Positions 2,290 to 49,781 of a DNA stretch of 64,000 nt are shown here, in pieces; position 1 is the first letter of the stretch; each line of letters opens with the position of its first letter. The notes below the pieces were generated by a model that did no database searches, had not been told where the DNA came from, and saw only the letters and a program-made list of their open reading frames with translations. The position numbers and the translations under genes were made by a program. The DNA is from a virus, in IMG/VR virus record IMGVR_UViG_3300042191_000299, positions 1 to 64,000 of that record; one strand, 5' to 3'.

Positions 2290-2631
2290 TCATTTCGTCA
2301 GTTTGTAGACGCCGATGCCCAGCCCCAACGTCGCCAGGGCCATGCCCAGGCCGAGCCAAATCTTCTCGGGAATGATACCCATCGCGGGCCCCTGCAGCGA
2401 CGGCGTCATCAGCCCTTCGCCCACCGCGCACTTGCGGGAGATGGCCGTGTGCACGGCGGCGATCTTCTTGTGCACCGCGCGCGCCAGCGACGGCTTGTTG
2501 GCGGTGGCCTGCGAATAGGCGTCGAGTCCGGCCCACGCCTGCACGATGGTCTGCTGGGCCACTTGGCAATTCCCGGCGGCCAGTGCCGCCTTCGCGTAGT
2601 TCACCGCGGCCAGGATCTCTGCTCGCGTCAC
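2290..2631 (-). CDS. hypothetical protein with C-terminal TM anchor (lysis-cassette candidate)
   Basis: GTG start overlaps the upstream stop (GTGA). C-terminal IWLGLGMALATLGLGIGVY. Confidence 0.5.
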   Translation of the reverse strand: MTRAEILAAVNYAKAALAAGNCQVAQQTIVQAWAGLDAYSQATANKPSLARAVHKKIAAVHTAISRKCAVGEGLMTPSLQGPAMGIIPEKIWLGLGMALATLGLGIGVYKLTK

Positions 2632-3846: not shown

Positions 3847-3920
3847 GTGATCACCTCGTTAGAGAAAGAATAGGGCTAGACGAGGCACCGGGTCAAATGA
3901 GGGGGGATGACCCGCGTGAC

Positions 3921-4390
3921 GTCGCATCTTCTAAGCCGGTGCGCAGGCGCTGTGACTTTGTCCTTCGCGATAGCCCCGCCAAGCTCATGAATCACGTCGC
4001 GCCAACAAAGCCGGCGCGCAGGCTCTGTGACTCGACCACCGGAACCCTTCCGCGAGCGACGAGACGGTAGTCGCACCAACAAGGCCGATGCGCAGGCTTT
4101 TGAGACCGTAATCCCAGCCAGCAGCTCGTCGAGCGTCGGCGTGTCGCACCAACAAGGCCGATGCGCAGGCTTTTGAGACATGGTGCAACCATCATCCCGG
4201 CGTTGTGCTTGTGTCGCACCAACAAGGCCGATGCGCAGGCTTTTGAGACACAGACGCAGGAGTTCGACGCCTACTCGCAGGCGTCGCACCAACAAGGCCG
4301 ATGCGCAGGCTTTTGAGACTCTACTTTCTTCGCGACACCACCAACGACAGATGGTCGCACCAACAAGGCCGATGCGCAGGCTTTTGAGAC
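3921..4390 (-). CRISPR. CRISPR array 1: 7 units (5 identical 37-nt repeats plus 2 divergent 36-nt distal units), 6 spacers of 33-39 nt
   Basis: Repeat GTCGCACCAACAAGGCCGATGCGCAGGCTTTTGAGAC at 4070, 4143, 4213, 4283 and 4354. Divergent units at 3921 and 3996. Spacers at 3957-3995, 4032-4069, 4107-4142, 4180-4212, 4250-4282 and 4320-4353 are all unique. The degenerate end is distal to the effector gene. Confidence 0.93.
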
Positions 4391-4481: not shown

Positions 4482-6170
4482 CTACGTTCGCGCGCCGTTC
4501 TTTGCACTCAGCGCCAGCAGATTGTTGCACGCGTTCAAATCTTGATCGCGTACACGCCCGCATGCAGCGCACGTGTGCATGAGCTGCGACTGATCCCATG
4601 TATCCTCACAGCCACATTCGTCGCAGCGCCGCGTGGTCATCGCCGGGTCGAGCTTGACGAATGTGCGCCCGAGCTTCCTGGCTGTGTCGATCAGGGCTAT
4701 CCGCAGTTCGTGCGGAGATCCCATCATCCGCCAGTATCGCTCGGCGTTCGGAACGGGTGCGTCTTCCGCCTTTGGCTTGGCCGCAAACTTGCGCAGGTCG
4801 AAGTCCTCCAGCACCAGCGTGTCGTACCGGGCAAGGAGCGTGCGCGCAAACATGCGGTAGAAATCCAGCCGGCGCGCGAGCGCCTTCTCACGCTGGTTGA
4901 TCGACCAGTCGCGGTAGTGCCAGAAACGCCGAACGCGCCACTCGTTGAGCGGCGAGAAGATCGCTTCGTCACCAGCGAACCGGTTGTCCTTCCACCACCA
5001 CACCGCTGATGACAGCCGTTTCGCGTTTCGCCACTGCGCCAGGTTCTCCAGACGCGCCGCGTGCTCGGGGGGCAGCGTGTTGGCCTTAGCCCAGGTGACC
5101 AGCTCGCCCCGCATCTTCTCGAACCAGTGGGTCTCCACACCTAACAACTGCGACGGGTAGTCCAGGGCGGACAGAAGCTCGTTGTCGAGTCGCACCTCCC
5201 CCTCGTTTCCCTTGTCGTCCTTCCAGTACGCCACGCGCAGGCCGCCGTTGCCCTTCTCGGCGACACGCCATCCGAGGTCGAGCGCCACACGGCCTTCGCC
5301 AGCAGCCACGGCTTGAGCAAACTCGCGGGACTCCACCGTGATGTGCAGTTCGTACGCCCAGGCGCGTCCGCGGCGCCAGCGGTACAGCCACGCCCACATG
5401 ATTTTCGCATCGTCCGGCAGCGGTCGATGGACGACAGCCGTGAACGTCACCCACAGCGGATCGCGTCCGACCGAACCGGCGCGGAGACTGCATTCAGCCA
5501 AATACTTGCCGCGCGACCGTCGCGTGCCGGGCAGCTCCCGCATACGAAAACGCCGGTCGCCCGCAAGCCGCGCCACGGTCATGCCCTTCTGGATCTGCAC
5601 AGCGATGCGCCCTTCGCCCGTGCGTGGCTTATGCCGAGGGTCCATCAGGGCCTTGCGCTGCTGCTCGGCTGCCTTCTCGCACACCAAATATGTGCCCCAG
5701 TACAGGTCCGACGCTGCGCGCTCTTCGATGATGCGCGCGTGGTGCCGCGCCTCAATTTCGTCCAGCCGTGCCTTGGTGGGGGGATCTGCTGCAGCTGCAG
5801 ATCGTTCCGCCTTCCAGGCTTTTCGCGCAACAGCGAGCTGCGCCTTGGCCTCTTTGATCGTCTGGCGCGTCTCGGCCGTCATCGTGCGCTTGCGTGCGGC
5901 TGCGTTGGCCTCGCGTGCTTGCTTGTATAGCGTCTCCACCGTCGCCTCTTCCCGGGCCACCCGCTGCCCTATCTCGATAACAGTAGGGGCCTCGTCGAGC
6001 ACGGCGCGAACGGCAGTGCGCCGCTCCAGCTCCAGCGTGACGAGCTTGGTGCGGTAGTCATCCGCCTTGCAATACTGATCGTCGGCGAGGGCTTGCCCTT
6101 CGGTGATGCCGCGGGGGTGGACACCGTAGACGTAGATGCGTGTAGGAACGGACGACGTTTTTCGCTTCAT
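4482..6170 (-). CDS. cas12: miniature type V CRISPR effector (TnpB/Cas12-like RuvC nuclease), 562 aa
   Basis: ATG 6170 overlaps the upstream stop (ATGA); the longer 605-aa listing adds a Pro/Arg-rich N-terminus. RuvC-I VALDLG (D298), RuvC-II LVLEDF (E455), zinc ribbon CDECGC..HTCAACG, RuvC-III RDQDLNACNN (D544). N-terminal strand IYVYGV plus a long helical insert. The array begins 91 nt downstream. Confidence 0.85.
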   Translation of the reverse strand: MKRKTSSVPTRIYVYGVHPRGITEGQALADDQYCKADDYRTKLVTLELERRTAVRAVLDEAPTVIEIGQRVAREEATVETLYKQAREANAAARKRTMTAETRQTIKEAKAQLAVARKAWKAERSAAAADPPTKARLDEIEARHHARIIEERAASDLYWGTYLVCEKAAEQQRKALMDPRHKPRTGEGRIAVQIQKGMTVARLAGDRRFRMRELPGTRRSRGKYLAECSLRAGSVGRDPLWVTFTAVVHRPLPDDAKIMWAWLYRWRRGRAWAYELHITVESREFAQAVAAGEGRVALDLGWRVAEKGNGGLRVAYWKDDKGNEGEVRLDNELLSALDYPSQLLGVETHWFEKMRGELVTWAKANTLPPEHAARLENLAQWRNAKRLSSAVWWWKDNRFAGDEAIFSPLNEWRVRRFWHYRDWSINQREKALARRLDFYRMFARTLLARYDTLVLEDFDLRKFAAKPKAEDAPVPNAERYWRMMGSPHELRIALIDTARKLGRTFVKLDPAMTTRRCDECGCEDTWDQSQLMHTCAACGRVRDQDLNACNNLLALSAKNGART

Positions 6171-6406
6171 TTGAGTACCTCGGTTAGAAGGGTCCGGAGC
6201 GCGTCCAGGCGCGCGGTTGGAAACTCCGTGACGCACTCGTTGCGTGAGATTTCGTGGTCTGTGCTGCACAGCCGTCGCAGCGACCGGAAGATGCGGCACG
6301 CGGCGACCTTCACTTGGTCACGCGTGCCGTGGCGCAGATCGTCCATGTCACCAGCGATCAACTCCTCGCGCACGCCGAGCTGGTCGAGCAGCTGCGCGAG
6401 CGTCAC
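6167..6406 (-). CDS. small helical protein, paralogue 3 of 3 (C-terminal LLTEVLK)
   Basis: 79 aa. ATGA overlaps at both ends. Shares its C-terminal motif with the two upstream ORFs. Confidence 0.6.
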   Translation of the reverse strand: MTLAQLLDQLGVREELIAGDMDDLRHGTRDQVKVAACRIFRSLRRLCSTDHEISRNECVTEFPTARLDALRTLLTEVLK

Positions 6407-11242: not shown

Positions 11243-12858
11243 CAGTAGAGCTTCCCGATGTAGACGGCGGCCATCTCTTGTGCACGCGTGATCGCCGTAT
11301 ACGTCCAACGACGGCCCTCTTCTTCGTCGAAGCGCACCGACGGCTCCACGACAATGAACACCCACGGCCACTGCGACCCCTGGCTTTTGTGTGCCGTCCA
11401 CGCGTACCCGAAATTCGCGTGGATGTGTGGCGCCACGGTGTCGCCGGCAGTGAAGTGGTTGTTCACGCGCGCCCAGCGGTTCGCGGCATCTACGATCCCG
11501 CGCTGTCCTACCGTGAGGCGTCCATGCAGTTCTTCAAGCGACAGCGTCAGCGGAACGCCACCCAGGTGTGTCGCGCCAAAACGGGTGTCTTCGTGCACGC
11601 CCTTCCAGCGGTCGGTCACACGCTCGAATCCCTCGGGCGAATCGTCCCACCCCTCGAACGTGAACGTCTCGCCGTTCATCAGCCCTGCATCGTAGTTGTT
11701 CTTCATGACCAGCAGCGGCTCGCCCACCTGCGGCATCTCGTTGTAGATGCCCAGCGTGGCGCGGATGCCCGCGTTCAGGTGAAAGCGCGTCTGGTTGCGG
11801 TGGCAGATGGTCACGCCACCGTTCTGGTGCGTTGCCACGGTGATCCCCGGAATCTGCCCATACTCTGCACGCGGTAGCTCCCGCAGTGCATTTATCCCTG
11901 CGCCGTTGCGCAGCGCCATCGACGCGCGGATCACTGGCGATCCTTGCGCCTGGCGGAGCACCTCGGTCATCTCCACACGCTCGGCGCCCAGACCTTCGGC
12001 AAAGGCCGGCAGCAAGATCGAAAACGGTGGCGCGTTGGGCGGCTGCACGGGGGGCAGCTGGAAGCCGTCGCCGATGCACACCAGCTTAAGGTCGAGCTGC
12101 TTGCACGTCAGGTAGACGTCCTTCCACACGTCGGGGCCCACCATGGATGCCTCGTCAAGCAGCACCAGGCGCGACTTGGTCACCGGGATCTCTTCGAGCG
12201 GCCGCCGCGTGAACTTGGTGACGCCTGTCTTGTCGTCCTCCTTGGGCTTGTATAGCCACCGGTGGATGGTGCTGGCGTTGAGCCCGGTGGCCTCGCGGAT
12301 GCGCAGCGCCGCCTTGCCAGTGGGTGCGATGGCCGTGGGCGTTCCGTATTCCTGCTCGAACACGCGCAGCATGCTGGTTTTGCCCACGCCGGCAAAGCCC
12401 GCCAGGATCGCCAGGGCATGACCTCGAACCGACATGCACCGCTGCACCATCGCGCGGCCACGTTCCTGATCGCTCGTGAGCGTGAACGGCAACACGACGG
12501 GCTTTGGTGGTTCCGGGGGCGCCATCGCCGCGTATCGATCTTGGATCGCCGTGGCCATCTCCTGCTGCACCATGCGCCGGCTGAACCGTTGATCGATGCG
12601 CTTGGCCAGCTCGGTGAACCCCAGCGTGTGCAGGCGGAACATCGACGAGCGTAGCGCCACGTAGGTGAGCGTGTTGGTGGCGATGTCGTGGAGGATGGTG
12701 TTCGCTTCCGTTCGCGCCTCGGCAGGAACGGCCTCGGGGTTGTAGCCGTACTGCTGGCGGCAGTCGGGCCCGATGGCCAACTCGATCGACAACGCATCGG
12801 TGAGGGGACGGCCACACGCGGCGCAGTTGGTGGTGGCGAATTGCGCGATGACGGTCAT
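11242..12858 (-). CDS. RecD/Dda-like superfamily 1 DNA helicase with N-terminal Cys motif
   Basis: Walker A GFAGVGKTS, Walker B LVLLDEASMV, C-terminal YAWTAHKSQGSQW. N-terminal CAACGRPLTD..GPDCRQ (DUF6011-like). Confidence 0.85.
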   Translation of the reverse strand: MTVIAQFATTNCAACGRPLTDALSIELAIGPDCRQQYGYNPEAVPAEARTEANTILHDIATNTLTYVALRSSMFRLHTLGFTELAKRIDQRFSRRMVQQEMATAIQDRYAAMAPPEPPKPVVLPFTLTSDQERGRAMVQRCMSVRGHALAILAGFAGVGKTSMLRVFEQEYGTPTAIAPTGKAALRIREATGLNASTIHRWLYKPKEDDKTGVTKFTRRPLEEIPVTKSRLVLLDEASMVGPDVWKDVYLTCKQLDLKLVCIGDGFQLPPVQPPNAPPFSILLPAFAEGLGAERVEMTEVLRQAQGSPVIRASMALRNGAGINALRELPRAEYGQIPGITVATHQNGGVTICHRNQTRFHLNAGIRATLGIYNEMPQVGEPLLVMKNNYDAGLMNGETFTFEGWDDSPEGFERVTDRWKGVHEDTRFGATHLGGVPLTLSLEELHGRLTVGQRGIVDAANRWARVNNHFTAGDTVAPHIHANFGYAWTAHKSQGSQWPWVFIVVEPSVRFDEEEGRRWTYTAITRAQEMAAVYIGKLY

Positions 12859-23821: not shown

Positions 23822-25075
23822 GTGCTTCTGGATCGGATCAGCAATGCGCTACCGCAGGGTTACGGTTTCCTGCGGAGCTACGTCGAATACGCTGCCCAGT
23901 GCAGTGACGCGCCCGAGATTTATCACGTGGGCGTCGGGCTCACGATCTTGAGCGGCGCCATCGCCAAAAAGCTACCGTGCCCGTGGATTGCCGGGCGTGC
24001 GCTGATCCCCAACCTGTACACGCTGCTCGTCGGCCCAAGCCGGGCCTCGCGCAAGACAGGCTCGATGGATGCCGGCATTGACATTCTACAGACGGCACAG
24101 AACGAGCTGGTGATCCCGATCCCAGGATCGTACGAAGAGCTGGTCACGCAGATCCGTTCGACGCCCAGCGGGCTCCTCACCTACCGTGAGTTCGGGCACT
24201 TCCTCAAAACCACGCAGCGCGGGTACGGCGAGCCACTGCGTACGGTGCTGATGGATCTCTACGATTGGCCACCCGATCGTCCCTATGTTCGCAACCTGAG
24301 AAAAGCAAAAACGATCGTCGAGCCCCCCATCTGCCTCTCGATGTTGAGCAGCATCGCCACGGATCTGCTGTTTCAGTTCTCCGACACAGAGGATTGGACC
24401 GGCGGGTTCCTCGGTCGGATGCTGCTGCTCTACGGCGAGCGCGACACGTTCAAGATGCCCGTCACGTGGTCGTCGGCACGGCAGCAGCTCATCGGCCTGC
24501 TGCACGGTCTGGCGCACTATCCAGTCCCAGCCTGCGGTGGTTTCTCACCCCAGGCGTGGCAACAGTTCTCGCAGTGGTCGCAGTGGCGCGACGGGCAGAC
24601 GGTGAACGCGCCCGCCCGCATGCAGACGCACATCTCGGGCGCCACCACGCTGGCCGCCAAGGTGGCGTTGCTCTATTCGGCTGACGCGGGCGAGGTAGCG
24701 GCGGGCAACGGCTGGCTGGTGTCGTACGAGAGCCTTCGCCGCGCGGTGCTGTTCGTCGAGGAGCTTTACATCCCGTCGATCATGCACCTCGGAGATCGCC
24801 TGGCGCTCGGCATCTGGGAGCGCGACAGGCAAAAGGTCGTCGACGCCGTCACCGAGCGTGGGCAGGTGGGCATCACGCGCCGCGATCTGCTGAAGCGCGT
24901 GCGTATGGAATCCACGTTCCTCGAAACCATTATCAACACGCTTCGGGAAGAGGGAACGATCGTCAGCGGCAGCGAAGCGAAGGGCCAGCCGGTCTATCGC
25001 GCGGCCACCAATGGCTTCGTGCCACCACCACGTGTGGGCACGGTGACGCCAATCGACCAGGCGACGGCGCCGTGA
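23822..25075 (+). CDS. DUF3987-like protein (replication-associated, tentative)
   Basis: 417 aa. LLVGPSRASRKTGS P-loop-like motif. GTG start. Confidence 0.45.
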   Translation: MLLDRISNALPQGYGFLRSYVEYAAQCSDAPEIYHVGVGLTILSGAIAKKLPCPWIAGRALIPNLYTLLVGPSRASRKTGSMDAGIDILQTAQNELVIPIPGSYEELVTQIRSTPSGLLTYREFGHFLKTTQRGYGEPLRTVLMDLYDWPPDRPYVRNLRKAKTIVEPPICLSMLSSIATDLLFQFSDTEDWTGGFLGRMLLLYGERDTFKMPVTWSSARQQLIGLLHGLAHYPVPACGGFSPQAWQQFSQWSQWRDGQTVNAPARMQTHISGATTLAAKVALLYSADAGEVAAGNGWLVSYESLRRAVLFVEELYIPSIMHLGDRLALGIWERDRQKVVDAVTERGQVGITRRDLLKRVRMESTFLETIINTLREEGTIVSGSEAKGQPVYRAATNGFVPPPRVGTVTPIDQATAP

Positions 25076-25611
25076 CACAGGTGTCGCGGCTTTTGGCCTC
25101 CCCCAACCGACAGCGCCTCGTCGCGGACATTCCTCTCCTCGGCACAGACCGCACGGCACGCGTCGACTACCGCGACCTGCACCACGTGTGCGATCACGAC
25201 TGGCGTCTCTACCAGACGTCGTCGCGGCACCCTCGGCGCACCGACTACGCCATCACGCGCATCAACGGTCGCAACGTGTACCTGCACTTGCACCTGTGGC
25301 ACTGCTGGGAGTTGCCGACGGTTCCTGTTGTCGACCACGAAGACGGTAACGGCCTGCACTGCACGTGGCTGAACCTGCGCGACGCCACCGTGGGGCAGAA
25401 CAACTGCAACCGGGGCCCGCTGCGCACCAACACCTCGGGATTCAAGGGTGTGACCTGGCACAAGCGTGACGAGCGGTGGCAGGCAGCGATCGGCACCGGC
25501 AATGAGCAGCGCTTCCTCGGCTACTTCGCTGATGCCGCCGAGGCAGCACGTGCCTACGACGAGGCGGCCAAGAAATTCCACGGTTCGTTCGCGGTCCTCA
25601 ACTTCCGCTAG
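25072..25611 (+). CDS. HNH endonuclease with AP2 DNA-binding domain (homing-endonuclease type)
   Basis: VVDHEDGNGLHCTWLNLRDAT..QNNCN (HNH). SGFKGVTWHKRDERWQAAI..YDEAAKKFHG (AP2). Confidence 0.8.
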   Translation: MTQVSRLLASPNRQRLVADIPLLGTDRTARVDYRDLHHVCDHDWRLYQTSSRHPRRTDYAITRINGRNVYLHLHLWHCWELPTVPVVDHEDGNGLHCTWLNLRDATVGQNNCNRGPLRTNTSGFKGVTWHKRDERWQAAIGTGNEQRFLGYFADAAEAARAYDEAAKKFHGSFAVLNFR

Positions 25612-25621
25612 GAGAACGCCC

Positions 25622-25828
25622 ATGCCTAAATGCTTTTGCCCGACGTGCGCCCGTGCTACGTGGTTTCGCAGTCAGCTCACAGACACGCAGGTGCGTCTGG
25701 CGGACTCCGCCGTGGACAAAGAATACGCGTTGCGCCGCGAGCTTGGATGGGAGACGGATCGGCCGCTGATCCTTGCCGCCGAGCAGGCCGTGCGAGCACG
25801 TACAGCGCAAGGCGTGTTGGCGGTTTAG
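25622..25828 (+). CDS. hypothetical small protein
   Basis: ATG-initiated, 68 aa. Starts MPKCFCPTCARATWF. Confidence 0.45.
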   Translation: MPKCFCPTCARATWFRSQLTDTQVRLADSAVDKEYALRRELGWETDRPLILAAEQAVRARTAQGVLAV

Positions 25829-25838
25829 CTGATTGGGC

Positions 25839-26048
25839 TCAATTCAGCAGCTGCGCCTCTTTCAGTAACTTGGCGATGGCTTCCGCATCAGTGGACATGA
25901 ACCACACGCACGACGGGAAGGGATCGTGGATCACCGTCAGGTCCGACAGCATAATTACCCCCTTGCAGCCCTCCCCCGGACACGGGCGCTTGACACGAAT
26001 ACGTGCGCAGTACTCTTTTCGGCGCCGTGCATGCTTCGCGCGACTCAT
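25839..26048 (-). CDS. hypothetical small protein
   Basis: 69 aa. ATGA coupling with the upstream ORF. Confidence 0.45.
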   Translation of the reverse strand: MSRAKHARRRKEYCARIRVKRPCPGEGCKGVIMLSDLTVIHDPFPSCVWFMSTDAEAIAKLLKEAQLLN

Positions 26049-26245
26049 CGCGATCGCGCGCTAGGCATCGGGCGCCGGGTGATCTCGGCAACGCGCAACC
26101 GAAACAGGGCCTCGCCAACGTCACAGGTCGGGTCCGACGCTTCGATCACGCAGCGGCCCTCGCACTGCACGCTGCCGACGTGCTCGGTGTACCAGCCCTT
26201 AGCTCCTAAGGCCGACAGCACGTCCATGCGCGAGCGCTCGGCCAT
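26045..26245 (-). CDS. hypothetical small protein
   Basis: 66 aa. Tight spacing with its neighbours. Confidence 0.45.
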   Translation of the reverse strand: MAERSRMDVLSALGAKGWYTEHVGSVQCEGRCVIEASDPTCDVGEALFRLRVAEITRRPMPSARSR

Positions 26246-26246
26246 T

Positions 26247-26468
26247 TCAGCTCTCCCAGCCCGTCATCGCCTCGACTTCCGTCGAGCTGTCGACCAGTTG
26301 CAGTTTCTCCGCGATGTCCGGCCGCAGCGTCCGCAGTGAGCCGGGCGAGCCCATGTACGACACCACGCGTGTCCTGGGATCGCGCGATATGATGAGCAAC
26401 TCGGCGATCCCAAGCTTCTGGGCCAGCCCACCTACGGTTTGGACAAACTGTTCGTACGGCGTCGGCAT
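26247..26468 (-). CDS. hypothetical small protein
   Basis: 73 aa with balanced composition. Confidence 0.5.
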   Translation of the reverse strand: MPTPYEQFVQTVGGLAQKLGIAELLIISRDPRTRVVSYMGSPGSLRTLRPDIAEKLQLVDSSTEVEAMTGWES

Positions 26469-26478
26469 GGTCGCGATT

Positions 26479-26718
26479 CTAGCTCCGTTTGGTTGTGGGG
26501 TCTTCCCCTTCGATTTGCGCCGCTGCTGTTTGCACCTGCGTGGCGATGAGCCCCAGCATTGCCTTCGAGCCCTCGGGCCCGTTGTTGCCGGTCATCTTCA
26601 TGACGGCGCGACCACCGGCCTGGTACCGGTAGATCACCGTAGCGTCGATGCCGCGTTGTTTGAGGCTCTTGAGGAAGGAGTGCACGAGGTCTTCGAGGGT
26701 GATGGTTTCGTTGGGCAT
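26479..26718 (-). CDS. hypothetical small protein
   Basis: Starts at MPNETITLEDL. 79 aa. Confidence 0.5.
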   Translation of the reverse strand: MPNETITLEDLVHSFLKSLKQRGIDATVIYRYQAGGRAVMKMTGNNGPEGSKAMLGLIATQVQTAAAQIEGEDPTTKRS

Positions 26719-26720
26719 CG

Positions 26721-26867
26721 TCAATCCTTCCGTTCTTTCCACCAGCGCGCGATCTTCATTCCCAGCACACCACTGCACGCGCCAACGCCAGCGCACACCA
26801 GCCACTCTGCGAGCGTGTGGGGCGGCTCCAGCAGCCGAGCACCGAAGCGAACAATCGCGTCGCCCAT
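26721..26867 (-). CDS. possible 48-aa membrane peptide (below the ORF-track cutoff)
   Basis: Hand translation gives MGDAIVRFGARLLEPPHTLAEWLVCAGVGACSGVLGMKIARWWKERKD. TGATG overlap with the upstream stop. Confidence 0.35.
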   Translation of the reverse strand: MGDAIVRFGARLLEPPHTLAEWLVCAGVGACSGVLGMKIARWWKERKD

Positions 26868-27091
26868 CAGCGCGCCTTTCTGATCACAGCGAGCACGCGC
26901 GCCTCAAGCTGCTCCAGCGCCAACTCGGTCACGCTGCCCATGGTCGGGCGATCTGTTCTCTCGGCTCCCGTCACGCGCCAGCCGTGCAGCGAGACCAGCG
27001 ACACCAGGCGCTGCAGACGGTCAAGTGCCTCCTGGTTGCGGACGCGAACGGAATTGAGTTGTGCACGTGCCATCAGCTCTCGTTGCTCCAC
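26867..27091 (-). CDS. hypothetical small protein
   Basis: GTG 27091 immediately follows the solitary repeat unit. An alternative ATG lies at 27073. Confidence 0.45.
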   Translation of the reverse strand: MEQRELMARAQLNSVRVRNQEALDRLQRLVSLVSLHGWRVTGAERTDRPTMGSVTELALEQLEARVLAVIRKAR

Positions 27092-27128
27092 ATCGCACCA
27101 ACGAAGCCGGTGCGCAGGCGCGATTCAC
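27092..27128 (-). repeat. solitary CRISPR repeat unit (sense to local transcription)
   Basis: Minus strand reads GTGAATCGCGCCTGCGCACCGGCTTCGTTGGTGCGAT. 27 consecutive nt are identical to the array-2 repeat. It fills the gap between the HerA-like stop (inside the unit) and the next start. Confidence 0.8.
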
Positions 27129-28882
27129 TGTTCAAGAAACACCTCGGATAGGTTGAGCGTCTCGCCGTCATCGCCGATCAGCTCCAGGTCACGCAACGAT
27201 TTGATCGTGCGTCCAAACGACGAGCTGGTCTGGCTATAGCCCGTCATTGCCGACAATTTCTCGCGTGACAGTGCATTCGCACCATGGATAGCGTTGTCGT
27301 AGATCGCCGATAGCATCCCAGCTTCCTGCGGCTGCAGTGTGCACATCCAATGGTCCAGCAGCGCACGCCCCGTGGGCAACGGCGCGGTCGTGCCGGCCAG
27401 CTCTCGGCCAGCGGTGGTGATCGTGTAGCGCGCCGGCGTCCCTTCGATGAGCCCGTCTTGCGCGAGCCGCGCGATGTTGCGGGGGAAGGCGCTCGACGAG
27501 CGGCGATAGCCGGACAACGTCGAGATTTGTGAAGCGCTGGCGGACCCCCGCTGCGCCACCACCGCCAGCAGCTCCCGCGCATATTGGGGGAGGGTGCCTT
27601 CGACTTCGGGCCGTCGCGCAGGCGCCGAATTCGCCTTTGCCAACATGCCGTTCATGTTGGGGGTGTTGCGTATCTTGCCAGGATCAAAGACGCCGTTGTG
27701 CTGGTTCAGCGGTACGGGCTGCGGCGCCGTTCGTCGGACCGCGGTCAGCAGCTCGTTCAGCTGCACGGACAGCTTCTGCTGCGTCGGCGCCAGGCGATCC
27801 GCCCAGCTCTCGATCACTTTGACCATCGCGGCGCTGAACGCGTTTTCGCTCTTGGCCAGCGACTCCACGATCTTCTCAATGCGCGCCAGCTCGGCCGGCT
27901 TCACCGCCGCCACTTCCTTCGCCGGCGCCGCAACGGCCGCGGGCTTCTTCGTCAACTCGCGCTCCAGCTCGGCGACGCGCGCACGTAGTGTTTTGGGGTC
28001 GCTGGCCTTGGCCTCCTCGATGGTGGCTGCCATCGCCGTGCGCACCTCGTCGAGATCAATTGGCGCCAGCTTGTGGCTTTGCGTGTCGGATCCATCGGGC
28101 GTCGCCGACGCGTCGAACGTTCGCTTCTTGCGGAACACCGTCCGCACGGCGCCCGACTCTTCCCATGCGATCATCGTTCCCTTGGGCAAATCGGGCAACA
28201 GCTTAATCATGTCGTCCGATGCACCGTTGGCATTCGCCCATCCGTCGATGCGCTTGATGTCCTCTGGCGCCTTGAGCTTGCCTGTGAAGATTTTGTCCGA
28301 AAGGTTGAGCGCCCCCTTGTTCACCTCCGCCGCACGCTGTGAAACGATGGTCCCACCGATGCCGTAGTTGCGGCCGATCTTCCACAGGCGCTTCGTCGCC
28401 CCTGCCATCGGCGCCTGGGCCGCGTCGACGAACTGCGGAAAGAATTCGTGGCCTTCCTCGAAGACCATGTGCAATGGCGATTTGTTGCGCTTCTTGAGAT
28501 TGAAAACCTCGCGGCACAGATCGGTGGCGAAACGGCGCTGCTCACCCTCGGTGAAGTCGCTGATATCGAGCACGCACGACATTCGATGGTTCACGATGAG
28601 CGACGCGACCAGCGCACCGCCTGTTGGCTCAAGCGGCACGTCGCCATGCAGGCCTCCAAACACAGGAACGTCGTAGCCCTTCGACTTGCCGTTGGTCGAC
28701 AGGCGCAGTCCGTACCAGGACCCGACGGGATCCACGACCACCACCTGCACGCCTGCATCGAGAAACTCTTCGACCAGCACGCCGGCGGCGTAGCTTTTCC
28801 CTGTGCCGCGCGTGCCCAGGAAGGCGTACGTGGACGTCGCGGCGTTCTTCGGCAGCGTGACGTCGTGCGACAAGCGGTACAT
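27125..28882 (-). CDS. HerA/FtsK-like (DUF87-type) P-loop ATPase with two C-terminal winged-helix repeats
   Basis: Walker A FLGTRGTGKSY, Walker B-like HMVFEEGHEF. C-terminal repeats ...ISTLSGYRRSSSAFPRNIARL and LSAMTGYSQTSSSFGRTIKSL. Confidence 0.7.
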   Translation of the reverse strand: MYRLSHDVTLPKNAATSTYAFLGTRGTGKSYAAGVLVEEFLDAGVQVVVVDPVGSWYGLRLSTNGKSKGYDVPVFGGLHGDVPLEPTGGALVASLIVNHRMSCVLDISDFTEGEQRRFATDLCREVFNLKKRNKSPLHMVFEEGHEFFPQFVDAAQAPMAGATKRLWKIGRNYGIGGTIVSQRAAEVNKGALNLSDKIFTGKLKAPEDIKRIDGWANANGASDDMIKLLPDLPKGTMIAWEESGAVRTVFRKKRTFDASATPDGSDTQSHKLAPIDLDEVRTAMAATIEEAKASDPKTLRARVAELERELTKKPAAVAAPAKEVAAVKPAELARIEKIVESLAKSENAFSAAMVKVIESWADRLAPTQQKLSVQLNELLTAVRRTAPQPVPLNQHNGVFDPGKIRNTPNMNGMLAKANSAPARRPEVEGTLPQYARELLAVVAQRGSASASQISTLSGYRRSSSAFPRNIARLAQDGLIEGTPARYTITTAGRELAGTTAPLPTGRALLDHWMCTLQPQEAGMLSAIYDNAIHGANALSREKLSAMTGYSQTSSSFGRTIKSLRDLELIGDDGETLNLSEVFLEQ

Positions 28883-28920
28883 CGAGGTGACACACGCGTA
28901 TCACGGCACGTGTCTGCCTG

Positions 28921-30141
28921 TCAACTGGTGGGCTTCATGCCAGGAAACTGGCGATGGAATTCCGCGTGCGTTTGTTCGAGCCACGTGCCAGTCATCTGCG
29001 CGGCCACCTCGGGGGGAACCGGCGGGCCCCCCTCGTCGGGCTTTCGCCACGACCAATCGTCTGGTGGCGGGGGCGCGGCGATCGGAATCGGCACGGCGCC
29101 CGAGTCCTCCACAGGCGGCACCAACGTCAGCGCCAGCCCGGACAACTCGCGATCACGCTGCGCACGCGCCTCCTCCGGGGATGGCCAGTGCGCCGGCGGC
29201 GCGGCGATCGGTGGTGAGGCTTGCACCACGTTGCTCGGCGCCACCCCTTCCGGTACATCCACCACGCCGTAGTGGGCCAGCACGGCGGCGAAGCCTGCCG
29301 GATCTGCCGCACGTGAGATCACCACGTGGTCCACGCGCCGCTCGGCCAGGCGCTGCCGAAACGCGTTCACGTCCGCGGTGACCGAGCCCTGCAGTGGCAC
29401 GAGGGCGTCGGAAAGTGGGCTTGGTACCGTCAGCGCCACCACCGACATGGCCTTGCTGGTGGTGCGCGCCGGTACGTTGTGGTCGGGGGGCAACGCCCCG
29501 AAGAGTAGCGCCTCAGGGGGCATGCGCCCAATGTCGCGGTGGCCCCACGCGTCCTCGAACGCGGCCGCCAGCACCTCAAGCTGCTCGGTGGTCAGCTCCA
29601 GGCACGTGCACTCGATGCACGGATCTTGGTGTGACGGAACGTCCTTCGCGGGAACGTGCAGCGTCCAGCGATCGGTGGGCACCCAGTCGAACCGCGCGGG
29701 GATGGGCGTTGCCGTCTTGGTCGCTGCATCCAGGCGCACGCTCGCGTACGCCAGCAGGCGCGGCACGAACTTGTTGGGCGATGGCGGCACGATGGCGTGG
29801 CAGCGGAGCCGGCCGACCTGCTTTGCGTCCAGCAGTAGCACCCGCCGCACAGGCCGGACACGGGCCTCGTAGGATTCGGAGATCCAGCGCCAGTAGGCCC
29901 GCACGGAGGTCAGCTCGGCGACGTTGGCGATGGTGGTGGGCTGGGCGGCGCGCCCTTTGCTGATCGAGCGGGCTGCGGTGCGGGCGTAGAGCGCAGCAGT
30001 CGCCGGGGACACGCCACGGGCCATCAACGACGCGATGAACCCCTTGGCGTTCAGGTACTGCGTGGTGCTGGTGGCGACCGTGACCACGGCATCGCCGATT
30101 CGGTACTGCACGGCTGCGTCTGATTTTGGCCTGCGTCCCAT
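28921..30141 (-). CDS. hypothetical protein, Pro-rich C-terminus
   Basis: 406-aa ATG ORF. The N-terminus faintly resembles an integrase SAM-like domain, but no catalytic R..HxxR..Y was seen. Confidence 0.55.
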   Translation of the reverse strand: MGRRPKSDAAVQYRIGDAVVTVATSTTQYLNAKGFIASLMARGVSPATAALYARTAARSISKGRAAQPTTIANVAELTSVRAYWRWISESYEARVRPVRRVLLLDAKQVGRLRCHAIVPPSPNKFVPRLLAYASVRLDAATKTATPIPARFDWVPTDRWTLHVPAKDVPSHQDPCIECTCLELTTEQLEVLAAAFEDAWGHRDIGRMPPEALLFGALPPDHNVPARTTSKAMSVVALTVPSPLSDALVPLQGSVTADVNAFRQRLAERRVDHVVISRAADPAGFAAVLAHYGVVDVPEGVAPSNVVQASPPIAAPPAHWPSPEEARAQRDRELSGLALTLVPPVEDSGAVPIPIAAPPPPDDWSWRKPDEGGPPVPPEVAAQMTGTWLEQTHAEFHRQFPGMKPTS

Positions 30142-30152
30142 GAGGGAAACGC

Positions 30153-30200
30153 TATGTCAGTTATGTGTATAGATCAATATATAATATATAAGCTGATCCC
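30153..30200. other. sharply AT-rich tract (DNA-unwinding-element-like)
   Basis: tatgtcagttatgtgtatagatcaatatataatatataagctgatc sits in an otherwise GC-rich genome. Confidence 0.6.
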
Positions 30201-30203
30201 ATA

Positions 30204-30302
30204 CCGTGCGCGCGCGCGATTCAACTATCACATTTTTTAGGTCGGTTTTTACCCTAAACATTGACCTAAAAAATGTGATAGTTGAATCGCGCGCGCGCAC
30301 GG
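30204..30302. repeat. perfect 40-bp inverted repeat with a 19-nt non-palindromic spacer
   Basis: 30204-30243 (ccgtgcgcgcgcgcgattcaactatcacattttttaggtc) is the exact reverse complement of 30263-30302. Confidence 0.95.
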
Positions 30303-30372
30303 GAGAGTCAGCCCGCAAAATTCAAGTGCGCACCGTAGCCGACGGGTTGAGGTAGTCCCCCACCAGCGCCCC

Positions 30373-30401
30373 TTGACACGCGCCGCGCGTTGCCGCATCA
30401 T
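30373..30401 (+). promoter_or_regulatory. candidate sigma70-like promoter giving a near-leaderless HTH mRNA
   Basis: TTGACA-N17-CATCAT, ending 6 nt before ATG 30408. Confidence 0.4.
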
Positions 30402-30407
30402 TTCGCC

Positions 30408-30656
30408 ATGTCGCCCGCCGAAAACGCGCCCAATCCAATCGGGGCGGAGATCCGCCGGCTGCGTGACTCGCTCGGGATGACCCTGCAGGATTTCGGGCGC
30501 CACGTGGAGATCCCGTGGCAGACGATCCAGGCGTATGAAGGCGGTCGCGCGGTGCCGCCGGCGACGCGGCTGCTGCTGATCATGCACGCCACCCGGCGCG
30601 CGAAGGAACCGTTCCGCGTGGCGCCGGTAGCTCGCGCTGTGGCGTTGGCGGCTTAG
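30408..30656 (+). CDS. XRE/Cro-CI family helix-turn-helix regulator
   Basis: IGAEIRRLRDSLGMTLQDFGRHVEIPWQTIQAYEGG. The listed TTG at 30390 is an alternative start. Confidence 0.8.
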   Translation: MSPAENAPNPIGAEIRRLRDSLGMTLQDFGRHVEIPWQTIQAYEGGRAVPPATRLLLIMHATRRAKEPFRVAPVARAVALAA

Positions 30657-30685
30657 AGCCTGCGCACCGGCTTTGTTGGTGCGAC
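30650..30685 (+). repeat. solitary CRISPR repeat unit (sense to local transcription)
   Basis: AGAGCCTGCGCACCGGCTTTGTTGGTGCGAC matches the array-2 repeat at 30/31 positions. The HTH stop codon TAG lies at unit positions 5-7. Confidence 0.8.
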
Positions 30686-31046
30686 GACATCCAGATCTCG
30701 TGATTGACCGCCACCCACGCAATCGTGTACGGTGCGCGCCCCTGCCGTAGGTCGCGGGTGGCGGCGGCGGGGCTCGACAGAACACCGTAGGGCCGGCAGG
30801 GTTTTACTTCGACCGGCAGCACGTGCTAGTGATCTAGCAAATGGGCCAAGCATCGAGACGGAAGCGCATGCTACCGGCGGCATACCGGCCACTCGGGCGG
30901 GTGGCGCCGCAATCCACAAATAGTCCACAGGCGTTGCAGAGTGTACCGGCGTGCCCTCGCTGCCCATTCGCCGAGGCTCACGTGCACTACCTGACGCTGC
31001 AGCGGCCCGACGGTAGCGCTTTTTATCCACAGCCATCGTAAACGAC

Positions 31047-31313
31047 ATGGCCTCGCACACGCGTCTTCATTGTGTTCTGTGTGGAGTGGACCGTGCGCCG
31101 CGGTTCTTCGGCATTTCGGCTGAGGGCGCGTACGACCCCGCGCACGTCAATGAGCTGGGCTCGCGCACCTACCACTTCGGCGGCGCGTCGAACATCAAAG
31201 TCGACAAGGGCCCCGCGCCGATGAACATGGCCTACGGGATGCGAGCGGCGCTCAAGGCAGCACTGGCGCGCGTGGAGGCGGACATCGTGGAGGCCGGAGG
31301 CGAGCTGGATTGA
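31047..31313 (+). CDS. hypothetical small protein
   Basis: 88 aa. Contains CVLCG. ATG start. Confidence 0.5.
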   Translation: MASHTRLHCVLCGVDRAPRFFGISAEGAYDPAHVNELGSRTYHFGGASNIKVDKGPAPMNMAYGMRAALKAALARVEADIVEAGGELD

Positions 31314-31606
31314 AGCGGCGCGCCGGCGGCATGCGGTTTTCCGCGCGGCTCCAGGAGGGCGAACGGATCTGGGTGCTGACCCCTGCCGACGCTCACGGCG
31401 TCGTCGTGTCGGCGCGGACGATGCGACGTGGCGACCGCCACATTCGCTGGAAAGAAGTTCCGCCACGCGCGCAGATCGTTAAAACGGGCAGATATAGTCC
31501 ACGCGTGGGCACTGTAAACCGGCGCGATGAAGGGGAAACATGGGTTCGTACCAATGGTCCAACAGCGGTGGCCGCGTTCCGCGCCATGCACGCGTTGCTG
31601 CGGTGA
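31310..31606 (+). CDS. hypothetical protein, paralogue of the next ORF
   Basis: 98 aa. Shares the pattern W..V......DEG.(T)W(V)R....(AVAA)(F/L)RA with 31606-31836. Confidence 0.5.
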   Translation: MKRRAGGMRFSARLQEGERIWVLTPADAHGVVVSARTMRRGDRHIRWKEVPPRAQIVKTGRYSPRVGTVNRRDEGETWVRTNGPTAVAAFRAMHALLR

Positions 31607-31836
31607 TGCTGTCCGTGGGCACACCGATCACGGTGGTGGTCGGGCGGGGCGTGCTGATTCAGGCGTTCGTGGACAAGGTCGATTCCGTGCAGTTTCGCTG
31701 GAATGAGGTTGGCGCGTTGAGCAGAAGCGCGCTGCTTACCGCCGACGACGAGGGCACACTGTGGGTGCGCGGCTGGTGGAACTACGACTCCGACGCGGTG
31801 GCCGCACTGCGTGCCGCTGCGGCGCTCATGGCCTAG
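31606..31836 (+). CDS. hypothetical protein, paralogue of the previous ORF
   Basis: ATG in a TGATG overlap. 76 aa. Confidence 0.5.
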   Translation: MLSVGTPITVVVGRGVLIQAFVDKVDSVQFRWNEVGALSRSALLTADDEGTLWVRGWWNYDSDAVAALRAAAALMA

Positions 31837-32249
31837 TCTGTGTCTTTGAACAGCCCCGGGTGGTACCCGTGCTGGGATGGTGGCGTCGTGGGAGGTGGCG
31901 GTGCGGGGGGCTCCTCGACGATCGCCGAGCGCTCCAATCCCCACAGCAAAACCCCTTCAAATACGGGTGTTAGGAAAGTTGCCAACAAACTAGCAACACA
32001 CAGCTCTGTGACGACCACCCACCAGGGCGATGCTGCCTCCGCAGACCAGATGCTCACCGGGCGCAGGCCCACGGCGGCGAGCCCGAGGCCAATCCACGTG
32101 CCTGAGCACCCGGCGCAGGCCAGCAACGACGCCAGCCAGCCGTGGGCCCGGCTCCACAGCGGCCGCCCGATGCCTGAGCGCGCCACCACCCAGTGAATCG
32201 CCGCGCTGAGCATGCCCAGCACCACCAGTTGCTGCACGTCGAGGATCAC
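31833..32249 (-). CDS. multi-pass membrane protein
   Basis: Several hydrophobic segments. The start is uncertain: GTG 32249 or ATG 32213. Confidence 0.5.
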   Translation of the reverse strand: MILDVQQLVVLGMLSAAIHWVVARSGIGRPLWSRAHGWLASLLACAGCSGTWIGLGLAAVGLRPVSIWSAEAASPWWVVVTELCVASLLATFLTPVFEGVLLWGLERSAIVEEPPAPPPPTTPPSQHGYHPGLFKDTD

Positions 32250-39292: not shown

Positions 39293-39960
<668 letters not shown>

Positions 39961-44970: not shown

Positions 44971-45199
44971 CCAGCGCCTAGCACACCTCAGGCGCAAGGG
45001 GTGGGTCCAAAAAGACGCCCTCTTTGCGGCGCGCTACGCTGCGGTAGGTGTGCCCATTCGTAATATCGGGGGCGACCTGTTCGTGCCTGGTTGGGCCCAC
45101 GCGATCGGCTACAACAAACAGACCGAGCTGCGCGCCGCCAAGCGCTCTGTGAAGGCGCGCAAGGCAGCGCTCGCGACGGCAGCCCTTTTGCAGACGTAA
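44918..45199 (+). CDS. hypothetical protein (start uncertain)
   Basis: Frame of the listed ORF 44864-45199. The first plausible start is GTG 44918, overlapping the previous ORF. Its stop lies inside the solitary repeat. Confidence 0.4.
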   Translation: MNSLRSWRVRGGTHRTVDQRLAHLRRKGWVQKDALFAARYAAVGVPIRNIGGDLFVPGWAHAIGYNKQTELRAAKRSVKARKAALATAALLQT

Positions 45200-45229
45200 G
45201 AGCCTGCGCGCCGGCTTCGAAGGCGCGAC
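45194..45229 (+). repeat. solitary CRISPR repeat unit (sense to local transcription)
   Basis: GAGCCTGCGCGCCGGCTTCGAAGGCGCGAC. Paired A>G / T>C changes keep the hairpin CGCGCC/GGCGCG. The stop codon TAA lies at unit positions 4-6. Confidence 0.75.
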
Positions 45230-48078: not shown

Positions 48079-48100
48079 ATCATCCACGATACTTGACGGC

Positions 48101-48118
48101 GTGCCAGTTATCCAGCAG
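48101..48118. promoter_or_regulatory. 18-bp quasi-palindromic motif, copy 4 (GTGCCAGTTATCCAGCAG)
   Basis: Lies between the divergent sugar genes and ends 1 nt before ATG 48120. Confidence 0.55.
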
Positions 48119-48119
48119 C

Positions 48120-49397
48120 ATGCGGAGCGTGTCGGATCCACTGTTTGTCGAGCTGAGGGAGAAGATCACGCTGCGCACCGCGCGCGTCGTAGTAGTGGGC
48201 GGAGGATACGTGGGACGGCCGCTGGCTGATGCGTGCGTGGGCGCCGGTTTCCACACGACCGTCTACGATACAAACGAATCTAAGTGCGCGGAGCTGCGCG
48301 CGGTGAACCATCGCGCCGTGACCGTCTCCGCCGTTCTCCGCAGCGCTGATGTGGTGGTGATCTGCGTCCCCACGCCGCTCAACAAGACGAAGGACCCCGA
48401 CAATACGCACGTGCTGGCGGTGGCCGAAGAGCTGCTGGATAACGCGCACGCACCTCGCCTGGTGATTCTTGAAAGCACAACGTTTCCTGGCTTCACACGC
48501 CAGGTGTTTGCCCCGAAGCTGCATCTGTCTATTGCCAACCGTGACTTCGTCGCCTTCTCGCCAGAGCGCACCGACCCCGGCAACGCCGAATACAATATCA
48601 GCAACACGCCGAAGATTGTGGCAGGTGCGGACGAGGAAAGCGCTGGGCTGGCGACGGCGTTCTACGAAGCATTCGTGGAACGCAAAAACGTCGTCCAGGT
48701 CAGCTCCACTGACACAGCCGAGATGGTCAAGCTGCTGGAGAACACTTTCCGCGCCGTGAACATTGGCCTCGTCAACGAGGTGGCGATCATGTGTCGGCAC
48801 CTCAATCTCGACGTGTGGGAGGTGATCGAGGCGGCCGCCACCAAGCCGTACGGATTCATGCCATTCTACCCGGGGCCCGGCATCGGGGGGCACTGCATTC
48901 CCGTGGACCCCCTCTACCTGTCATGGCAACTGAAGACGCTGCAGTACGATGCGCGCTTCATCCAGCTTGCCGACCAGATCAACTCGGCAATGCCGGCGCT
49001 GGTGGTGGACCGCGTGACCGAGGCTCTCAATGGTTTGGGCTTGGCGGTGCGCGATGCGAATATTCTTCTGCTCGGCGTGGCCTACAAACCGGGTGTGGGT
49101 GACGTGCGAGAGTCACCCGCGTTGGAGATTTTGGCCTGTTTTGAGAAACGCGGCGCTGCGGTAGTGTATTTTGATCGGTATGTTGAAAGTGTCACCACGA
49201 AGCGGTATGCGGTACTACCGTCGTGTCGGCGTCTGGACAGCGCCCTGTACGCAGCATGTGCCTGCGCGGTCATCGTCACGGACCACCCCGACGTGGATTA
49301 TGAGGAGATCGTGCGCAGCGTGCCGGTGACGGTGGACTGCCGGAACGCGACGAAGGCATTTCGCGCGAAGTACCCCGGGAAGGTGGTGATGCTTTGA
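48120..49397 (+). CDS. UDP-sugar 6-dehydrogenase family (WbpA/WecC-like nucleotide-sugar dehydrogenase)
   Basis: Rossmann VVVVGGGYVGRPLA, catalytic GGHCIPVDP. 425 aa from ATG 48120. Confidence 0.8.
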   Translation: MRSVSDPLFVELREKITLRTARVVVVGGGYVGRPLADACVGAGFHTTVYDTNESKCAELRAVNHRAVTVSAVLRSADVVVICVPTPLNKTKDPDNTHVLAVAEELLDNAHAPRLVILESTTFPGFTRQVFAPKLHLSIANRDFVAFSPERTDPGNAEYNISNTPKIVAGADEESAGLATAFYEAFVERKNVVQVSSTDTAEMVKLLENTFRAVNIGLVNEVAIMCRHLNLDVWEVIEAAATKPYGFMPFYPGPGIGGHCIPVDPLYLSWQLKTLQYDARFIQLADQINSAMPALVVDRVTEALNGLGLAVRDANILLLGVAYKPGVGDVRESPALEILACFEKRGAAVVYFDRYVESVTTKRYAVLPSCRRLDSALYAACACAVIVTDHPDVDYEEIVRSVPVTVDCRNATKAFRAKYPGKVVML

Positions 49398-49523
49398 TGT
49401 GCCCGCGAGCGCCGCGGTGGTGAGCCGATCTCGGGAGGCGCTCGATCACAGCAGTTTCGCGTGCTTGCACTTCGGTTGCCGTACATTCTTGGCTGGCATG
49501 AGCGCGTGAAACAGCCACCGCTC

Positions 49524-49573
49524 GAAACTGACAATCAAATAGCCGAACAAGACACGGCTTTTTCTAGTGAGCC
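49524..49573 (+). promoter_or_regulatory. CRISPR leader 2, homologous to the array-1 leader
   Basis: ACTGACAATCAAATAGCCGAACAAGACACGGCTTTTTCTAGTGAGCC aligns with the minus strand of 4391-4436. Confidence 0.65.
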
Positions 49574-49756
49574 GTCGCAGAGCCTGCGCACCGGCTTCGT
49601 TGGTGCGACCTCCAGAAGGAGGTCCTGTGTGCGGCGGTACCACCGGTCGCAGAGCCTGCGCACCGGCTTCGTTGGTGCGACCCAGGAACGACGACCAAAC
49701 GCGACTTCACGATCCGAAGGTCTCCAGAGCCTGCACACCTTGACCTCGTGCCAGTT
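49574..49756 (+). CRISPR. CRISPR mini-array 2: two identical 36-nt repeats plus one degenerate terminal unit, 2 spacers (36 and 38 nt)
   Basis: GTCGCAGAGCCTGCGCACCGGCTTCGTTGGTGCGAC at 49574 and 49646. Degenerate unit at about 49720. Spacers at 49610-49645 and 49682-49719. Orientation is opposite to array 1 on the map. Confidence 0.85.
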
Positions 49757-49765
49757 ATCCAGCAA
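49748..49765. promoter_or_regulatory. 18-bp quasi-palindromic motif, copy 5 (GTGCCAGTTATCCAGCAA)
   Basis: Overlaps the decayed end of array 2. Lies 17 nt upstream of ATG 49782. Confidence 0.55.
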
Positions 49766-49781
49766 CATCCCCGGACTGCGA

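Follow-up and report, generated by a model that had tools for sequence, protein, structure and literature searches.

Solitary type V-M CRISPR repeat units at gene junctions of a phage that encodes its own Cas12m

The 64,000-nucleotide (nt) stretch of DNA analysed here, called the window below, corresponds to positions 1 to 64,000 of the IMG/VR virus record IMGVR_UViG_3300042191_000299 and is phage DNA, with genes for an endolysin, a family-B-like DNA polymerase and a Dda-like helicase. Its minus strand carries at 27092-27128 an exact 37-mer, GTGAATCGCGCCTGCGCACCGGCTTCGTTGGTGCGAT, which is a solitary repeat unit (SRU) of the CRISPR type located in the intergenic space between two minus-strand genes. 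The upstream gene (27125-28882, minus strand) encodes a 585-amino-acid P-loop ATPase with a DUF87/HerA-like N-terminus (PF01935, E=2.6e-7) and a winged-helix-like C-terminus; it shows a weak match to a terminase-large PHROG ATPase and a coding score of 0.32 per codon. The downstream gene (26867-27073, minus strand) encodes a small protein of 68 amino acids counted from ATG 27073, has a modest coding score and is kept in syntenic relatives. The TGA of the HerA-like open reading frame (ORF) forms positions 2-4 of the unit, within its variable 5′ part, as an initial annotation of the sequence had placed it. On the other side, where a spacer would stand, 18 nt (GTGGAGCAACGAGAGCTG, 27074-27091, minus strand) hold the Shine-Dalgarno-like GGAG/GAGAG of the next gene.

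That annotation also described the unit as exactly filling a stop-to-start gap, with the first codons of the next ORF in the place of a spacer. The mechanical ORF does begin at GTG 27091, touching the unit, but the true start of the small gene is most likely ATG 27073, 18 nt further on. This start is found in an independent gene call on the identical public contig L028, agrees with the N-termini of homologous small proteins in four relatives (L101-L104), which have a GW..G motif in common, and is directly preceded by GGAG/GAGAG. With ATG 27073 as the start, the real stop-to-start gap would measure 51 nt (5 nt, a 28-nt core and 18 nt), and the sequence following the unit would be a ribosome-binding region and not the first codons of a gene, so that this part of the description needs a small correction.

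The 27-nt core of the unit, GCCTGCGCACCGGCTTCGTTGGTGCGA, is identical, hairpin included, to both repeats of a mini-array of the same phage, with exact matches at 49582 and 49654 that bear out the first observation made on this locus. With up to 3 mismatches, the core has 11 matches in the window, array-1 repeats and other solitary copies included, versus 0 in 100 shuffles, and the unit scores 47.5 bits (E=8.5e-10) against a covariance model of the repeat (R1). Its nearest neighbour lies 3.5 kb away, at 30649, whereas a solitary unit need only be free of other full or partial repeats over ~100 bp, and a filters-off model search for a second repeat within ~500 bp gave chance-level hits only (8-9 bits, E ~2-3). 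Given the match, the model score and this distance, the unit can be taken as a genuine solitary CRISPR repeat in the sense of a CRISPR RNA (crRNA), as had been proposed. There is no cas gene locally, cas12m and both arrays of the phage being 21-22 kb away. No promoter-like site was found upstream of the unit in a scan of 24-32 kb, no Rfam family reaches its gathering score in the window, and a blastn search with 24001-32000 found nothing in INPHARED phages or PLSDB plasmids.

The type V effector that the initial annotation assumed in general terms is present and can now be named. The cas12m gene (4482-6170, minus strand) encodes a type V-M effector of 562 amino acids (PDB 23vw Cas12m, E=6e-66; Cas12m2 8hhl, E=6e-23; PF07282) that carries a Cas12f1-like TNB domain and for which 49 homologues were found; the invariant residues D298, E455 and D542/D544 suggest a D-E-D RuvC triad. 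Cas12m is described as an effector that binds DNA but leaves it uncut, silences transcription and produces its mature crRNA itself (among others PMC10442227). Its orthologues process pre-crRNA alone, cutting within the repeat, and silencing relies on DNA bound through a 17-bp heteroduplex (PMC10442227). V-M systems are enriched on plasmids and prophages. Directly downstream of cas12m and on the same strand, array 1 (3921-4390, minus strand) consists of five 37-nt repeats, GTCTCAAAAGCCTGCGCATCGGCCTTGTTGGTGCGAC, and two degenerate terminal repeats. The mini-array, array 2 (49573-49744, plus strand), has two repeats, GTCGCAGAGCCTGCGCACCGGCTTCGTTGGTGCGAC (49573-49681), and a degenerate third one that overlaps a promoter-like TTGACC box. 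The ORF 49461-51965 that runs through array 2 is an artefact; the real gene starts near 49782, is not an effector and, by eye, looks like one for a glycosyltransferase-type protein.

A potential target of the arrays was found inside the phage itself. The first 19 nt of array-1 spacer 2, which lies downstream of the repeat at 4283-4319 (minus strand), match the plus strand at 2507-2525 in 18 of 19 positions, inside a minus-strand gene (2290-2631) of the operon that leads to the endolysin; by our own estimate, the chance expectation of such a match is ~0.001-0.01 over all 16 spacers tested. It could reflect self-regulation or a spacer aimed at an allele of related phages. The 5′ flank of the match, CGGCTTGTTGGCGGTG, resembles the repeat loop. 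Among all stored loci, protospacers sought for 47 spacers of the repeat family yielded chance-level 16-20-nt hits only, and no protospacer-adjacent motif (PAM) could be inferred.

The anatomy of the solitary units is that of a V-M crRNA scaffold. In the window they are conserved from about -31 to -1, counted from the 3′ end, and vary over their first 6-7 nt, which substantiates the proposals that the 5′ end is free to vary and that the conserved ~30 nt are the part retained by the effector. The 36-nt repeat in the Cas12m2 structure is disordered over its first 7 nt, -36 to -30 (PMC10442227), and GoCas12m retains ~30 nt of the repeat (PMC11013384), so that these effectors order or retain ~29-30 nt. 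The unit at 27092 has a stem CGCACC/GGTGCG, a 9-nt loop GGCTTCGTT, a closing G.A pair and a 2-nt 3′ tail; in alignment A2, columns 15-20 pair with columns 30-35, and G14 and A36 flank the stem. The V-M features of a ~30-nt 3′ part, a 6-bp stem, a G.A closure and a 2-nt tail are thus all present, the Cas12m2 structure having a G(-23).A(-2) pair, a 6-bp stem formed by C(-22..-17) and G(-8..-3), and then 2 nt (PMC10442227).

Pairing in the stem is maintained despite sequence change. Across ten distinct copies, 98% of the stem cells are paired, versus 15-48% when the partners are slid, and two of the six stem pairs show changes on both sides (AU to GC, CG to GC). A more diverged unit, found by the covariance model at 1490-1526, has a fully compensated stem, CGGATC/GATCCG. 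Selection thus acts on the fold, the loop and the single-stranded 5′ nucleotides of the units, which is what a protein-bound RNA scaffold predicts.

In total, the window contains two arrays and six solitary units. All of them run in the direction of the flanking genes, and five of the six solitary units start no more than 8 nt from a stop codon, overlap one or are the second unit of a pair. The sense orientation first noticed for three of three units, at 27092 and at 30649-30685 and 45193-45229 on the plus strand, extends to six of six in the window and to ~27 loci in relatives. The unit at 30649-30685 (55 bits) overlaps the TAG of an XRE-type helix-turn-helix gene (30408-30656) and is followed 18 nt on by a TTGACC-N18-TACGGT box. 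The unit at 45193-45229 (51.8 bits), with the compensated stem CGCGCC/GGCGCG, comes after a TAA and 51 nt before ATG 45281. Three further units, all on the minus strand, complete the earlier list. Two of them form a pair, 18 nt apart (840-876 and 785-821), that starts 3 nt past the endolysin stop, where a minus-strand operon ends, the unit at 785-821 having the compensated stem CGCAGC/GCTGCG; the third is the diverged unit at 1490-1526 (27.9 bits, E=5e-5), upstream of the endolysin gene, with a TTGACC-N17-TACGAT box 11 nt on. The endolysin gene is therefore bracketed by units; codon scoring identified it, at 880-1440, as the real gene beside the 840 unit, and the ORF 869-1312 was discarded.

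Four of the seven unit loci have, 11-58 nt further downstream, a promoter-like box of the form TTGACC-N17/18-TAnnnT or CAnCAT; these are four of the 16 such matches in the window, against ~0.03 expected by our own estimate. Boxes of this kind lie at 1448-1479 (minus), 30704-30733 (plus), 3868-3897 (minus), 49737-49768 (plus) and 48090-48121 (plus), one of them is overlapped by the degenerate third repeat of array 2, and nearly the same 30-nt element recurs before the gene 48129-49397. The 18-24 nt that follow each solitary unit were compared with the 64 kb of the window, out of a 94.5-kb genome, and have no second match there beyond chance (at best 4 mismatches in 18).

Units of this kind recur in other phages. 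Three public collections, searched by pattern scans, contain the same repeat family: it occurs in viral contigs of IMG/VR, in contigs from metagenomes and in metagenome-assembled genomes (MAGs) of Actinomycetota, with units that are often dispersed at kb spacing, each on the strand of the neighbouring genes. Single-protein IMG/VR scans with the HerA-like protein and with Cas12m returned no confirmed relatives; an alignment-based scan returned 59 viral contigs with Cas12m relatives. For each Cas12m locus, a repeat profile was built from its own array and used to seek copies outside that array. Such copies occur in four loci (L044, L050, L071 and L089), in sense orientation, intergenic and each matching its own array, and L071 has the same layout as the 27092 unit, namely a stop codon, the unit, ~20 nt with GGAG, and an ATG. 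In a microbial-mat phage with dispersed units (contigs L122, L013 and L004), one contig end overlaps, at 99.4% identity, a contig that carries a Cas12m homologue and an array with the identical repeat; this phage most likely encodes its own Cas12m system. When the first contigs with units and the MAG contigs were searched by tblastn for Cas12m, their stored parts yielded none, and for the microbial-mat phage the overlap is the sole link to Cas12m. Altogether, ~27 independent loci are in sense orientation and none with a convincing score is antisense, the antisense hits being two weak ones; gene calls for this census came from our own codon-score script.

Among the Actinomycetota, a Micropruina MAG contig (L038, JBGAJF010000023.1) holds a regular 13-repeat array of the same repeat family at 1789-2649; no Cas12m was found in the stored 8 kb of this contig. 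Some of its spacers are duplicated, those at 1967-2000 and 2234-2267 being identical. The repeat family also occurs in other Actinomycetota MAGs, and such MAG contigs may themselves be phage or plasmid. A different arrangement is seen in L032, whose Cas12m homologue is ~49% identical: it has no regular array and instead two clusters of degenerate units (6000-6210 and 11800-12230) with short irregular spacers and many compensated stems, each of which stops just before the same AAAAAAATACTTGAC promoter-like box.

The census in related genomes, proposed at the outset as a check, gave an answer with two sides: the units recur, in sense, in other phages with Cas12m, and the particular unit at 27092 is missing from the same junction in four of four syntenic relatives. 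The HerA-like protein of these relatives is 50-60% identical, and its gene is followed by the same small gene; the two abut, the gap between them ranging from -4 to 37 nt, and the 20 kb examined contain no unit at all. The 27092 unit is therefore a lineage-specific insertion. A metagenome scan for the empty allele of its site, made with the 24 nt that follow the unit, gave zero hits.

A filled and an empty site can be compared in the microbial-mat phage, of which the contigs are 99.5% identical. L013 carries at 4797-4844 a clean 48-nt insertion, composed of ATGGATA, a 36-nt repeat and ATGCA, directly after the gene of an RNA-recognition motif (RRM) protein, and the corresponding sites of its two siblings, L004 (2857) and L122 (6264), are empty. 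The empty site reads GCGTTTC|ATGAATCC, with ATG at both junctions; the ATGCA after the repeat differs from it and belongs to the insertion. A 33-nt insert directly 5′ of a solitary unit (L013 3029-3061; L107 2092-2107; L126 12393-12408) carries GAAAATGTTCGGCAGC, a motif also present just before the first repeat in the main array beside cas12m, which indicates that array and solitary copies recombine. In addition, a 1.2-kb accessory cassette of L013 (3227-4421) is bounded by two units and missing in its sibling L004. Within short times, then, units are gained and lost and recombine with the arrays. By eye, the cassette encodes a Phd/YefM-like small protein and a partner ORF, and the stretch between units at L013 4478-4780 encodes a 100-amino-acid protein resembling RRM (RNP-1 motif) RNA-binding proteins, unusual for a phage.

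The reading that we favour, with a probability of about 40%, assigns the units to the phage's own Cas12m, which would bind and probably cut messenger RNA there. Its observed base consists of the repeat identity, the compensated scaffold, the strict sense orientation, the stop-adjacent intergenic site, the presence of cas12m and the recurrence in relatives. According to this scheme, a solitary copy of the phage's V-M repeat would have been inserted into the junction of the HerA-like and small genes and would be transcribed within a minus-strand polycistronic mRNA, on which the last ~30 nt of the unit would fold into a Cas12m crRNA scaffold. Phage-encoded Cas12m would bind this fold and, as with pre-crRNA, cut at the 5′ edge of the scaffold, 3-4 nt past the HerA-like stop, so that the transcript would be split at a defined point. 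Cas12m might then stay clamped on the 5′ end of the downstream RNA, whose first 18 nt would be the ribosome-binding region of the small gene. The dispersed units could in this way act as Cas12m-dependent punctuation that uncouples the stability and translation of neighbouring cistrons. It is also conceivable, though doubtful, that a nuclease-silent Cas12m has acquired a second job on the phage transcriptome as a whole, with dispersed repeats that spread as small insertions and either recruit it to cut and cap mRNAs at cistron boundaries or sponge it as a timer.

Several observations weigh against action of Cas12m on the phage's own mRNAs. The absence of the unit from all four syntenic junctions argues that it is dispensable for the operon, and turnover between 99.5%-identical phages is explained by an arms race or a selfish element no less well than by regulation. 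The cut would fall in the 5′ flank, which is not conserved in the window units, so that binding without cleavage is possible, and the literature (including PMC10442227) gives neither a processing mechanism nor an exact cut site for Cas12m. Part of the census started from Cas12m-positive loci, in which units were sought with the repeat of the locus itself, and the link between units and self-encoded Cas12m is thus partly built in by the search.

The main competing explanation, serious though unlikely in our estimate, is that the units are RNA anti-CRISPRs (Racrs), which, co-transcribed in bulk with phage mRNAs, would load the Cas12m of the host, of a resident plasmid or of a rival phage with harmless RNA and so blunt V-M silencing. 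A solitary viral repeat unit is the defining form of a Racr, and V-A examples inhibit Cas12a (PMC10651486). V-M systems are enriched on plasmids and prophages, the Micropruina array points to compatible systems in likely hosts, the fast gain and loss of units suits an arms race, and sense orientation and scaffold conservation are equally expected. However, no Cas12m was found in the stored part of the MAG contig, and described Racrs usually stand behind their own promoter and away from cas genes (PMC10651486), whereas the 27092 unit is promoterless and begins inside a stop codon. The phage and at least five other unit-bearing lineages also possess a Cas12m of their own, together with arrays of the same scaffold. 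We prefer a role of the phage's own effector because every lineage that could be checked carries both Cas12m and same-scaffold arrays, and decoys would titrate this protein too. An improbable alternative is that the units have no Cas12m-linked function and are neutral or selfish by-products of array recombination, or hot spots and joints of cassette exchange, tolerated between genes in a harmless orientation. The clean 48-nt insertion, a repeat with 7 and 5 flanking nt, would be explained well in these terms, as would the 33-nt insert with the leader-proximal motif of the array, the cassette enclosed by two units, the bracketed endolysin gene and the absence of the 27092 unit in relatives. Neutral insertions would nevertheless not be 100% sense over ~27 loci, and diverged copies such as those at 1490-1526 and 785-821 would not keep the loop, the G.A pair and a compensated stem.

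Somewhat more improbable still is that the units are natural single guides, in which a unit and the adjacent 17-20 nt would direct Cas12m to the neighbouring promoter or gene (autoregulation) or to the unit-less allele of co-infecting relatives (exclusion). Such guides would resemble the homing logic of TnpB and its omegaRNA and would be compatible with silencing through a 17-bp DNA heteroduplex. With the promoter-like boxes so close downstream of units, several of the would-be guides overlap a -35 box, and the self-match of array-1 spacer 2 suggests targets inside the phage family. But the 3′ end of the repeat (GAC/GAT) occupies the PAM position at its own locus, as in any array, the would-be guides lack a second match in the window, and in the sole filled/empty comparison (L013 vs L004/L122) ATGCA is part of the insertion, so that the seed would mismatch the empty site; no protospacers were found among the stored loci. 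A generic hairpin acting as terminator, attenuator or 3′ stabiliser independently of Cas12m appears highly improbable, even though units lie near upstream stop codons and several stand where an operon ends or immediately ahead of a promoter-like box. The stem is short, at 6-9 bp, and conservation reaches the loop and single-stranded 5′ nucleotides identical to the CRISPR repeat. The 27092 unit was not reported in a terminator scan, its tail being GTGGAGCAAC, which has no T (U) tract; its folding energy is ordinary relative to shuffles (z-score -1.3), and a co-oriented gene starts 18 nt after it, on which grounds the terminator reading was rejected. A pairing of the loop with the downstream ribosome-binding region in a 91-nt fold was also considered and dropped, as it is not significant (z = -0.6).

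As a category, the unit at 27092 belongs with the viral solitary repeat units and is as such known: viral SRUs were first catalogued by Faure et al. 2019, and both SRUs and their decoy function, as Racrs (Camara-Wilpert et al. 2023, PMC10651486), are already published. The likeness lies in a single intergenic copy of a repeat in a phage that keeps sequence and fold and is expected to bind a Cas protein as RNA. The present units differ in that they are numerous (six in 64 kb), lack promoters of their own and sit at stop codons within operons. The phage furthermore encodes the cognate effector and arrays, whereas SRUs were originally described as not associated with cas genes, and no acr (anti-CRISPR) genes were recognised near the units. 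Subtype V-M was not examined for SRUs in the literature compared, and a 2026 preprint reports phage-encoded Cas12m without mention of solitary units. What is undescribed in this literature is thus the combination of V-M type, multiple copies, lack of promoters, embedding in operons at stop codons, strict sense orientation, effector-encoding genomes and insertion polymorphism.

Comparison with other systems helps to delimit the case. V-M crRNAs, known from MmCas12m2 and GoCas12m (PMC10442227, PMC11013384), likewise have a 36-37-nt repeat, a ~30-nt 3′ scaffold, a 6-bp stem, a G.A pair and a 2-nt tail, but in them a spacer and a further repeat come after the repeat, where the unit here leads into the 5′ region of a gene, and their loop has 8 nt instead of 9. 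The V-M effectors that have been solved process pre-crRNA themselves and bind DNA without cutting it, and the Cas12m considered here is only ~30-50% identical to them. CreA/CreR, scaRNA, tracr-L and mini-arrays (Shmakov et al. 2023, PMC10120712) are also stand-alone repeat-like elements that recruit an effector beyond immunity. Elements of the CreA/CreR type, however, lie inside cas loci and have a spacer partly complementary to a promoter, whereas the 27092 unit is 21 kb from cas12m and the 18 nt after it have no second target in the window (best 4 mismatches, at chance level). In TnpB/omegaRNA (IS200/IS605), the ancestor of Cas12, a scaffold is similarly followed by flanking genomic sequence as a would-be guide, in elements that are small and polymorphic for presence or absence; for the units, no transposase, transposon ends or logic of a transposon-associated motif (TAM) were found, and in the sole filled/empty pair (L013 vs L004/L122) the guide seed would mismatch the empty site. 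Conserved sense hairpins between cistrons that punctuate transcripts and set their stability are known in the RNase III sites of T7 polycistronic mRNAs and in the repetitive extragenic palindromic (REP) elements of bacterial operons. The analogy to these is functional; they use host RNases or act passively, whereas the partner presumed for the units is a CRISPR effector encoded by the phage, and the element is a CRISPR repeat.

Solitary repeats of viruses have so far been understood as decoys against host CRISPR. If the phage's own Cas12m acts on the units, they would offer a natural case of a CRISPR effector that processes or regulates mRNA, a natural counterpart of engineered mRNAs with embedded Cas12a or Csy4 sites and a virus-made post-transcriptional control built from CRISPR parts. 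If they are decoys, Racrs would be extended to V-M, with a promoter-less, operon-embedded delivery. In both cases, near-identical phages with clean filled and empty sites provide a tractable system for how single repeats move.

Some further features of the window and of its assembly can be recorded. An independent short-read assembly of the same phage (L130, Logan) ends exactly at the unit pair, window ~785-876. As the same phage is split there into 14-26-kb contigs, units fragment assemblies and may be under-counted in metagenomes. Between the gene 2290-2631 (minus) and the 1490 unit, ~760 nt (1527-2289) contain no ORF of phage codon bias; the region is one in which holin or lysis genes could be anticipated. 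Finally, a tandem run of 9-nt units of the GGCGGCGGC type (39358-39659; 33 copies, 82% matches) lies inside ORFs on both strands and possibly encodes a glycine-rich or collagen-like protein segment.

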